Source: Eledone cirrhosa
Lineage: Eukaryota
Length of the DNA: 64,000 bases
NCBI GenBank assembly: GCA_964016885.1
Contig: OZ024742.1
Span: 153,016,001 to 153,080,000, forward strand
Direction of reading: 5' to 3'
This document shows, one piece after another, positions 44,477 through 47,270 of the stretch (its first letter is position 1; every line of letters begins with the position of its first letter). The translations under genes and the position numbers were made by a program. The notes beneath the pieces are model-generated. The model had not been told where the DNA came from and made no database searches. It was given only the letters and a program-made list of their open reading frames with translations.

Positions 44477-45863
44477 ATGTAAGTATGTATGTATACGTAC
44501 ATACATATATGTATACAGACGTACAGTAGCATGCATATATAATTATATATATATATATATATATATATATATATATATATACATACAGGTACACATACAT
44601 ATATGCACGCATCAGTACATAGTACATCGTTCCTGTGTCAGTGTTGAACAAAAAGTTGACGTGGTTGCCTTAACACCGTATGGCATAAATTCAGGCTGTT
44701 CAGTTTGTTTACAAACGAACAAAGCGGCGTTATAATAAGCGTCCGCTAAACTGATGCGTGCATATATGTATGTGTACCTGTATGTATATATATATATATA
44801 TATCTATATATATAAGAATGCTACTGTACGTCTGTATACATATATGTATGTACGTATACATACATACTTTCATTTAAGTAAGTGCCCTAGTAAGAGTGAG
44901 AAATGAAATTTCGTTTTCATTTTATTTCAACCTATCTTTTTCGGTATGCCTGACCGATTTAACTCACTAAATATGCAAATTAGGCTGCTCAGCCGTTAAT
45001 TTTCATAAGGAAAGTATATACTTTCGAACGTTCAACTATCTGGCAGATGGGTATACGGTGCTGATGATAGTTAACAAGCTTGAAATTAGTACATCGTTCC
45101 TGTGTCAGTGTTGAACAAAAAGGTGACGTGGTTGCCTTAACACCGTATGGCATAAATTCAGGCTGTTCAGTTTGTTTACAAACGAACAAAGCGGCGTTAT
45201 AATAAGCGTCCGCTAAACTGATGCGTGCATATATGTATGTGTACCTGTATGTATATATATATATATATATATATATATATATATATGCATGCTACTGTAC
45301 GTCTGTATACATATATGTATGTACGTATACATACATACTTACATTTAAGTAAGTGCCATACTAAGAGTGAGAAATGAAATTTCGTTTTCATTTTATTTCA
45401 ACCTATCTTTTTCGGTATGCTTGACCGATTTAACTCACTAAATATGCAAATTAGGCTGCTCAGCCGTTAATTTTCATAAGGAAAGTATATACTTTCGAAC
45501 GTTCAACTATCTGGCAGATGGGTATACGGTGCTGATGATAGTTAACAAGCTTGAAACTAGTACATCGTTCCTGTGTCAGTTTTGAACAAAAAGGTGACGT
45601 GGTTGCCTTAACACCGTATGGCATAAATTCAGGCTGTTCAGTTTGTTTACAAACGAACAAAGCGGCGTTATAATAAGCGTCCGCTAAACTGAGGCGTGCA
45701 TATATGTATGTGTACCTGTATGTATATATATATATATATATATATGCATGCTACTGTACGTCTGTATACATATATGTATGTGCGTATACATACATACTTA
45801 GATTTAAGTAAGTGCCATACTAAGAGTGAGAAATGAAAATTCGTTTTCATTTTATTTCAACCT
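44477..45863 (+). repeat. ~471-bp HHR-containing tandem repeat (~2.6 units) preceded by an inverted fragment (44477-44617)
   Basis: Units start near 44620, 45088 and 45559; HHRs at 45056-45096 and 45527-45567: CGGUG-CUGAUGA-U-AGUU/AGCU-U-GAA-ACUAGU-A|CAUCG. Confidence 0.88.
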
Positions 45864-46379
45864 ATATATATATATATATATATATATATATATATATATA
45901 TATATATATATATATATATATATATTTATGTATATATATATATATATATATATATATATATATATATATATATATATATATATATTTATGTATATATATA
46001 TATATATATATATATATATATATATATATATATATATATATATATATATATATATACATATATATATATATGTATATATATATATATATGTATATATAAA
46101 GGAACGACCGACTTTCGTCAAATCGGACCGAGGAAACAATGTTTCCGTTTGTCTTTTCAAATGCTAATACTATCTGTCTCTCTTCCTGCTATTTCAAACG
46201 TTAACCTAATATATTGCTTACATATACTGTACCGATTGTGTTGTTATTTCTCTTTACCTCTTACACACAAACACACACACACACACACACACACACACAC
46301 ACACACACACACACACACACACACACACACACACACACACACACACACACACACACACACACACACCCATATCTATATA

Positions 46380-47270
46380 CTACTGTACGTCTGTATACAT
46401 ATATATATGTATGTGTACATACTTATATTTAAGTAACAGCCGTACTAAGAGTGGGAAATGAAATTTCGTTTCATTATTTCCGATTATCATTCTCTGTGCT
46501 GCCGGCCGATTAACCCACTCGATATGCAAATTGGGCTACTCATCCGTTAATATGCATAAGGTAAGTATATACGTTCAACAATCTGGCAGGAAGGTATACA
46601 TTGCTGACGATAGCTAATAAGCTTGAAACTAGTACAGCGTTCCTTTGTCAGTGTTGAACAAACGAGCAACGATGGTTGCTAGACACTACGGCATAATACG
46701 GGATGTTTGTTTACAAACACACCGAGCATTATAATAAATGTTCGGTGAATCCATAAGTACATATATATGTGTGCATGTATGTATATATATATATATACAT
46801 ACTACTGTACGTCTGTATACATATATGTATGTACGTGTACATACTTATATTTAAGTAACAGTCGTACTAAGTGTGGGAAATGAAATTTCGTTTCATTTTT
46901 TCCGTCTATCGTTTTCGGTAAACACGGCCGATTAACCCACTCGATATGCAAATTGGGCTACTCAGCCGTTAATATGCATAAGGTAAGTATATACGTTCAA
47001 CAATCTGGCAGGAAGGTATACGTTGCTGACTATAGCTAATCAGCTTGAAACTAGTACAGCGTTCCTTTGTCAGTGTTGAACAAACTAGCAACGATGGTTG
47101 CTAGACACTACGGCTTAATACGAGATGTTTGTTTACAAACACACCAAGCATTACAATAAATGTTCGGTGAATCCATACGTACATATATGTGTGTGCATGT
47201 ATGTATATATATATACATACTACTGTACGTCTGTATACATATATGTATGTACGTGTACATACTTATATAT
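46380..47270 (+). repeat. ~420-bp HHR-containing tandem repeat (~2.1 units), diverged relative of the 471-bp unit
   Basis: HHR 46599-46639 (CUGACGA..GAAACUAGUA|CAGCG) and 47021-47061 (G8 mutated); shares ATATGCAAATT and CAGTGTTGAACAA blocks with the 471-bp unit. Confidence 0.85.

Follow-up and report, generated by a model that had tools for sequence, protein, structure and literature searches.

Arrays A and B of the analysed window, a 64,000-nt stretch of Eledone cirrhosa contig OZ024742.1 numbered here from its first letter, are probably two insertions of a hammerhead-bearing non-LTR retrozyme without an ORF, made by an enzyme borrowed from a Penelope-like element (PLE) that copied a predicted RNA circle. 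The part of this reading that assigns retrozyme insertion to PLE machinery is very likely. The retrozyme class is already known, and what appears to be new is the mechanistic footprint of insertion more than the family. The insertion enzyme and circular template of animal retrozymes have so far been argued from co-occurrence and homology; here the PLE signature is borne by the insertions themselves, in tens of thousands of copies, and the same genome has young candidate helpers with long open reading frames.

Both arrays sit between (TA)n tracts. Insertion A follows a left flank rich in (TA)n (44174-44473) and begins with an inverted arm on the minus strand (44474-44616; unit positions about 126-256 counted from the cut), the 3' end of which is a fixed site, S1, joined to (TA)n. 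At the head-to-head junction (44617-44619) three extra bases create a short AGTACA repeat, which we infer to resemble a microhomology slip. The direct arm, array A (44620-45865, plus strand, period 471 bp, 2.7 copies), opens with TAGTA/CATCG at 44620, 5 nt upstream of a cut position, and terminates at a second fixed site, S2 (unit position 315), within the (TA)n of the right flank (45866-46098). Insertion A, about 2% diverged from the A consensus, carries S1 on its left arm and S2 on its right, in agreement with the one-of-each pairing described below. An internal copy of the 'tail' between S1 and S2 (59 nt, plus strand) lies at 45347-45406, with S1 at 45347 in a small hairpin loop and S2 at 45406 in a predicted unpaired U-rich stretch 3' of a hairpin. 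Insertion B is a single plus-strand arm (46369-47271, of which 46369-47268 is tandem array; period 422 bp, 2.1 copies). It starts inside the TA hairpin of its unit and ends at S1 (B position 219) in the (TA)n of its right flank (47272-47418). Because it diverges by about 3% from the B consensus, against about 2% for insertion A, it is probably older and would represent a separate event. Between the two insertions, at 46099-46366, lies a 164-bp spacer followed by (AC)n; no second copy of the spacer was found among the loci examined.

A and B align at 75% identity, their longest ATG ORFs are 64 and 38 aa, and their units, with a GC content of 0.25-0.34, under the 45-50% limit of non-LTR retrozymes, are joined seamlessly head to tail and have no LTR structure; eight fragments of the window gave no Pfam match. 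The first-pass annotation had described two diverged ORF-less tandem families, the first opening with TAGTA/CATCG after an inverted fragment, and all of this is borne out, as is the period of 471 bp; its second period, given as 420 bp, is corrected to 422 bp.

The same two fixed 3' ends, which the first-pass annotation had passed over, recur across the sampled copies. With A coordinates counted from the cut, A/B arms end at about 256 (S1) or about 315 (S2), which are 56-59 nt apart, are both joined to (TA)n and correspond to positions 219 and 275 in B numbering. Two samples were typed: a position-ordered one, made up of 67 merged pieces from the initial 22.5 Mb of contig C1, and a best-hit one of 60 loci, or 56 once four overlapping loci were dropped. 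The ordered sample holds 124 arms, 45 ending at S1, 52 at S2, 15 elsewhere and 12 in the unit's microsatellite; the best-hit loci, from which five arms at locus edges were dropped, hold 91, with 33 at S1 and 45 at S2. The 3' ends were binned at 242-262 and 295-316, the modes at 256 and 315 containing 144 of 175, and the flanks of the S1 and S2 arms are TA-rich in 161 of 175. Among 70 head-to-head inverted pairs, all 47 that could be typed at both ends combine one S1 with one S2 end (45 of these are independent, and one is the window's own pair). In a sister family, D, the same holds for 14 of 14 typed pairs from 17 pairs counted by eye. At the joints themselves, 34 of 48 resolvable pairs overlap by 1-20 nt, 3 are blunt and 11 have extra bases, while 22 further joints lie inside microsatellite. 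Two fixed 3' ends with one on each arm are the 'tail' signature of PLEs, and the strict one-of-each pairing sharpens a known but loosely stated rule that only one end of a PLE insertion carries a tail. About five short S2 arms end at S1, too few to be read as a mark of both primers on one molecule. Elsewhere in the window (22436-27950, minus strand), a 310-bp hammerhead array of 16.3 units with an inverted arm has two ends about 40 nt apart in the unit, both at (TA)n, a footprint as in A/B; blastn reported no homology between it and A/B.

In the 3.0 Gb searched, an exact 33-nt hammerhead pattern matches at least 23,738 times and a control pattern does not match at all, the repeat copies being dispersed, high-copy insertions of the retroposed type. 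The label 'retrozyme-like' fits these short, ORF-less tandem units with one type I hammerhead each. A set of 159 segments clusters in groups of 80, 48, 8, 6, 6 and 3 plus 8 singles; by this clustering the two main subfamilies are A and B, which belong to a single ORF-less non-LTR retrozyme and are linked by intermediates. Both supposed families are thus real, but as the ends of a subfamily series rather than as separate entities. The sister retrozyme D (L046:2107-3321, L032:2670-3171 and L318-L349) has a unit of 466-469 bp, about 58% identity to A/B and the same layout, with a G-C closed stem II, arrays of up to 31 cuts and fixed 3' ends at positions 235 and 304. Its pattern has 9,563 matches, and 99 of the first 100 are D.

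Four hammerhead cores lie in the window arrays (45061, 45532, 46604 and 47026), and the core pattern was absent from 100 shuffles of the window. Hammerheads A1 (45056-45096, predicted cut after 45091) and A2 (45527-45567, predicted cut after 45562), both on the plus strand, are intact in the core, A1 with loop III AUUAGU. B1 (46599-46639, plus strand, predicted cut after 46634) has the intact core CUGACGA and a stem I, CAUUG, with one A-C mismatch; B2 (47021-47061, plus strand) has stem I CGUUG and the core CUGACUA, a G8U change, and is predicted to be inactive by analogy with the role of G8 described in PMC11167929. The B motif of the first-pass annotation had merged these two copies. Its stem II AGUU does occur but as a minority variant, the consensus of both subfamilies being AGCU, and its stem III ACUAGU does not apply to the first A copy. 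The conserved hammerhead that it saw in both arrays holds, but not its 'minimal' type. The minimal PLE-type hammerhead has a long helix II (7-8 bp) and a short helix I with a poorly defined loop according to PMC4209133; it is ruled out here by a helix II of only 4 bp and an extended helix I. From its long, bulged helix I, 4-bp helix II and palindromic helix III, the window ribozyme is classed as a canonical metazoan type I hammerhead under the definitions given in PMC4209133. By analogy, the palindromic helix III leads one to expect that it acts as a dimer. A and B have GUA as the cut triplet, and D has GUU or GUC. In the A units at L008, L014 and L018, loop III is ACUAGU in alternation with ACAUGU; this double change preserves the palindrome. 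Older A/B-like copies at L174, L179 and L265 all have a GUU triplet, and at least one (L174) has C-G at the base of stem II, which suggests that the U-U mismatch there is derived.

Since Rfam gave no hammerhead at gathering score, and none among the 150 listed of 160 weak matches, the ribozyme call is founded on the motif and on covariation. Hammerhead pairing is 94%, compared with 33-46% in slid controls, and 6 of 15 pairs are changed on both sides across the four window copies and two D copies; with only three lineages, the independent covariation events are few. The core changes between A and B at 2 of 33 positions versus 63 of 351, a low rate that is partly circular because many copies were retrieved by that very pattern. 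The predicted unit RNA as a whole is highly self-paired (z -7.7 and -7.0, the TA hairpin contributing in part). When the A consensus is folded and B substitutions are scored on it, there are 5 double-sided changes against 1.5 expected (P 0.011) and 12 broken pairs against 22.8; with B folded and A scored, there are 7 against 1.7 (P 0.001) and 15 against 25.1. The double changes include a long-range helix just 3' of S1 and the helix closing the S2 loop, both retained in D. Covariation analysis by consensus folding therefore supports the proposal that ribozyme structure is under selection, with compensatory changes maintaining the pairing both in the ribozyme and in the rest of the unit.

A mechanism can be proposed in which a locus carrying two hammerheads would be transcribed, the palindromic helix III would pair the two hammerheads so that a unit is cut out, and the excised unit would be closed into a circle by ligation. 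The PLE protein that acts next is probably a dimer; it would nick both strands of a (TA)n tract, priming at S1 for one end and at S2 for the other. From there each cDNA would travel round the circle, through the cut, and stop at random, and the two would be joined head-to-head, mostly via short microhomology. The helper reverse transcriptase/endonuclease would most likely be that of a Neptune-type PLE.

Within this scheme the circularity of the template is the more plausible option on balance. The strongest alternative keeps the element and the PLE machinery, but its template is a linear transcript that reads through a locus of several units and stays uncut, with the hammerhead as a passenger or serving another step; this is unlikely, yet several observations agree with it. 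Reverse transcription passes the cut. The hammerhead of a PLE is dispensable in vitro and uncut RNA is the main substrate, in the experiments described in PMC11167929. A PLE without a detected hammerhead is also tandem (6.67-kb units), so tandems need no ribozyme circle. In A/B, moreover, 79 of 124 arms cross one cut only. Linear copying, however, would make arrays shorter with each round, and it leaves unexplained why hammerhead and palindrome are kept across A, B and D at about 58% identity. The sharpest case comes from the young D lineage and not from A/B. The variant that marks this lineage is present in 69 copies at 7 loci across the genome, and its insertions have different joints and near-identical units, with arms of up to 18 + 7 cuts and 20-25 identical units over both arms. 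One D insertion consists of 18 full and 2 partial units, all identical, with 13 cuts in one arm and 7 in the other. A linear template needs a longer source than its copy, and the 18-cut arm of this closed lineage is therefore hard to explain, there being no longer source among the 7 loci; such a source could lie outside this assembly. Long arms on both sides of young insertions also count against linear read-through. Identical units on both arms are as rolling-circle copying predicts, and the arrays support it; two young A/B arrays likewise have private variants common to both arms. Of the earlier proposal that the template was a self-cleaved multimeric or circular RNA, the circular or multimeric part is upheld by the identical-unit arrays, and the array start at the cut, offered as its sign, is not.

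Some other features of the arrays appear to be of later origin. In older arrays the units differ by private changes of their own, and such variants have been shuffled and duplicated locally. For two mosaic D arrays, template switching at the cut was considered, but the recurring variants are mostly private to one array and the end units are consensus, so that later local shuffling is simpler; period-2 arrays in A/B, also considered under template switching, fit local duplication. At L349 (G000:C744:11000-19500) the first full unit belongs to another D subfamily, with 24 differences, and the array changes to the young lineage within 70 nt after a cut, by template switch, recombination or assembly artefact.

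PLEs with coding capacity are present in the same genome, with clade names assigned here by motifs from PMC8557442. A Hydra-like family with an 830-aa open frame (window 40364-43560; L159-L173) has a 6.67-kb unit full of microsatellite, an unusually long tail of 137 nt and an S1+S2 combination in its one typed pair; no canonical hammerhead was found in it, though this is said to be universal in Hydra elements. A second Hydra-like family, of 714 aa (L250:4186-6500), has a canonical hammerhead in its 5' UTR and a degenerate copy in its 3' UTR, a 78-nt tail and S1+S2 in 4 of 4 typed pairs, and is alone among the PLE families in having a canonical hammerhead detected. A Neptune-like family with a 775-aa open frame (window 50036-52897; L251-L266) has ends 61-67 nt apart and S1+S2 in 8 of 9 typed pairs; no hammerhead was found in the stretches scanned. 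Its frame has no in-frame start methionine, for which an intron, or an exon lying upstream, is perhaps the cause. A second Neptune-like family, seen as pieces only and 59% alike, has ends about 35 nt apart and S1+S2 in 9 of 10 typed pairs. All four families have two ends each, in (TA)n. Pfam recognises RVT_1 and GIY-YIG in the 775-aa protein and gives no match above the cut-off for the two Hydra-like proteins.

Another idea takes the units for pLTRs, solo or in tandem, that came from an ORF-bearing PLE in which the sequence is still present. Frog retrozymes are often homologous to pLTRs as described in bioRxiv 10.64898/2026.07.22.740005, the unit ends here behave as pLTR ends, and a few hundred of about 24,000 copies were examined. 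The idea is nonetheless quite improbable. The units are seamless head to tail, and their 5' ends have no common joint to an ORF. The 830-, 714- and 775-aa families have no DNA homology and no pLTR homology with A/B, and no RT plus GIY-YIG ORF joined to the A/B repeat was found in the sampled loci, so that the ORF-containing PLE named beforehand as the refuting case did not appear in any locus examined. PLE coding matches occur at only 2 of 64 single-arm 5' flanks (L113 and L047); the L047 match is 100 nt from the arm, and the L113 match is explained by insertion into a Hydra-like ORF. L113 (4500-7560) had been considered as a Hydra-retrozyme chimera and is instead a nested insertion, in which the retrozyme lies antisense in the ORF with a 9-bp duplication and was then copied into the inverted arm of its host element.

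Returning to a PLE as helper of an independent retrozyme, the helper being a Neptune-type element has close to an even chance. Among the 64 single-arm 5' flanks, two are joined directly, head-to-head, to a short Neptune-type arm (L107 and L102), in the order (TA)n, Neptune-type arm, junction, retrozyme arm, (TA)n. At L107 the Neptune arm is 95% identical to the 775-aa family and the retrozyme arm is of type A and ends at S2; at L102 an arm of the second Neptune family meets an intermediate retrozyme arm ending at S1. The two arms of L102 are of similar age (both about 95% to their nearest copies), those of L107 less so (99% and 96.5%). A scan of all loci for PLE-retrozyme joints at 80% identity returned L107 only, and no head-to-head joint with the tested Hydra-like families was found among the single-arm flanks and loci. 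These chimeras hint at a Neptune-type helper and offer a lead, and they could also be neighbouring insertions with a deletion. At L233 a retrozyme and a Neptune element stand head-to-head with 150 nt of microsatellite between them, which was not counted as a chimera. End motifs resemble each other too weakly to name the helper: compared with the Neptune end region, B gives P 0.012 and A gives P 0.066, uncorrected over 13 tests, and D shows no resemblance. The 714-aa Hydra-like family stays a candidate on account of its canonical hammerhead and 78-nt tail.

A fuller and more speculative model, which has the lesser chance of being right, is that a ribozyme circle without detectable kinship to its helper hijacks the dimer of a Neptune-type PLE by start-site mimicry, the two halves always using different sites and each being able to hold a different RNA, so that half-PLE, half-retrozyme insertions arise. 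If true, it would name the enzyme that spreads animal retrozymes and would trace both the tail and the inverted arm of PLEs to an asymmetric dimer. The RNA is well defined, at less than 500 nt, its two start sites are mapped, and three proteins stand as candidates.

The start of array A close to a cut had been taken as a sign of a self-cleaved template. A linear cut-to-cut monomer, with copies starting at the cleavage site, would account for that start 5 nt away and for 2 of 100 post-cut motifs that begin within 5 nt of the cut. It is very improbable in view of the other 5' ends. Among the first 100 post-cut motifs on contig C1, 94 are preceded by a full hammerhead; of the other six, one has an internal deletion, two are those just mentioned and three start 8-22 nt before the cut. 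In the two samples, 6 of 94 (5.8 expected) and 2 of 69 (4.3 expected) resolvable 5' ends lie no more than 12 nt from the cut; both samples need the hammerhead region in at least one arm, so that short distant arms are under-counted. Mapped in this way, 5' truncations are random with respect to the GUA site. Because 5' ends near the cut are not enriched, reverse transcription must run through the cut, and the start of array A near it is a coincidence. Cut-spanning 35-mers (22,514) and post-cut 24-mers (27,988), patterns not exactly nested, differ by about as much as divergence alone would give. Equally improbable is an ordinary minisatellite that DNA recombination has spread and in which a ribozyme-like motif arose by chance: the insertions are short and dispersed, their 3' ends are fixed and arms inverted, covariation is seen, and the shuffles gave no match. 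Private variants shuffled and duplicated locally in old long arrays fit such a process only for later changes inside arrays.

Comparison with known systems places A/B between retrozymes and PLEs. PMC7229834 presents the non-LTR retrozyme class and a rolling-circle model, with PLEs named as candidates only. The retrozymes described there (coral, mussel, and axolotl Rtz331 and Rtz353) are likewise short, ORF-less tandem units present in thousands of copies, each with one canonical type I hammerhead, a low GC content and a predicted RNA that is highly paired, and A/B share the U-U at the base of helix II with HHR_Amex2 and the palindromic helix III with HHR_Amex1. A/B units are slightly longer than the approximately 170-400 nt given in that paper and have a TA hairpin inside the unit; its main text mentions neither (TA)n targeting nor inverted arms nor a pair of fixed ends. 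Circles are demonstrated for those retrozymes, whereas A/B are known from genomic sequence alone. In the available text of bioRxiv 10.64898/2026.07.22.740005, retrozymes are concluded to be non-autonomous PLEs from co-occurrence and pLTR homology, and 8 of 9 frog retrozymes did not cleave in vitro. The conclusion of PLE mobilisation is alike, but A/B have no pLTR homology to the PLEs searched and the evidence here is the insertion footprint and the chimeric insertions; the words 'tail' and 'initiation' were not found in that text.

From the PLE side, PMC8557442 and PMC3846280 describe elements that target (TA)n and have a truncated copy in inverted orientation and a tail at one end. According to PMC11167929, two internal start sites delimit the tail, both strands are extended in vitro, the protein is a predicted dimer and its hammerhead is dispensable for in vitro insertion. 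Endonuclease-bearing PLEs as so described (Neptune, Hydra, Naiad; PAc of the anole) resemble A/B in that they target (TA)n, have an inverted copy placed head-to-head and a tail at only one end, use two internal start sites and show microhomology joints; A/B differ in having no ORF, a unit that closes on itself and a tail of 56-59 rather than 30-40 nt. Non-autonomous Chlamys PLEs such as MRC1 are, as reported in PMC8557442, also ORF-less, multicopy, head-to-tail and PLE-driven, but their 3' end resembles that of their helper, and most Chlamys elements have no detected canonical hammerheads, unlike A/B. For retrozymes, no account of two fixed ends, strict pairing or PLE-retrozyme chimeras was found in the literature searched, which leaves supplements and most subscription papers outside.

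Newt satellite 2 is alike in its tandem hammerhead, active as a dimer, and a promoter of the snRNA type has been reported for it. That promoter includes an octamer. An octamer, ATGCAAAT, lies in array A at 45444-45451 (plus strand), with further copies at 44973, 46524 and 46946, and is retained in A, B and most D copies. An snRNA-type promoter in the unit was considered and set aside, the best match to the U2 promoter motif being 11-12 of 18, as in shuffles (U2 genes only). The U2 snRNA genes form tandem clusters of a 2.2-kb repeat (L298-L317) with the upstream motif TCAGTGGRTGTAGAATAG near -55, and the three checked have no exact octamer within 320 nt. A young D lineage without the octamer has still spread, and A/B differ from newt satellite 2 in having no match to the host U2 promoter motif. 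In that lineage (L320-L321, L343-L349) three A>G changes fall in the octamer with pairing retained as G-U, and the triple could record RNA editing in a founder. The triple variant is a lineage at 7 loci and not a single event. A/B copies give no strand bias of the kind expected from A-to-I editing (59 A>G vs 51 T>C, P 0.45); D copies give 20 vs 9 in the same comparison.

More hammerhead-like cores, of several types, are scattered through the window at about 1385, 2799, 9019, 10609, 15042, 20937, 44051, 53319 and 54593. Some adjoin PLE coding fragments, and the window holds many PLE families.
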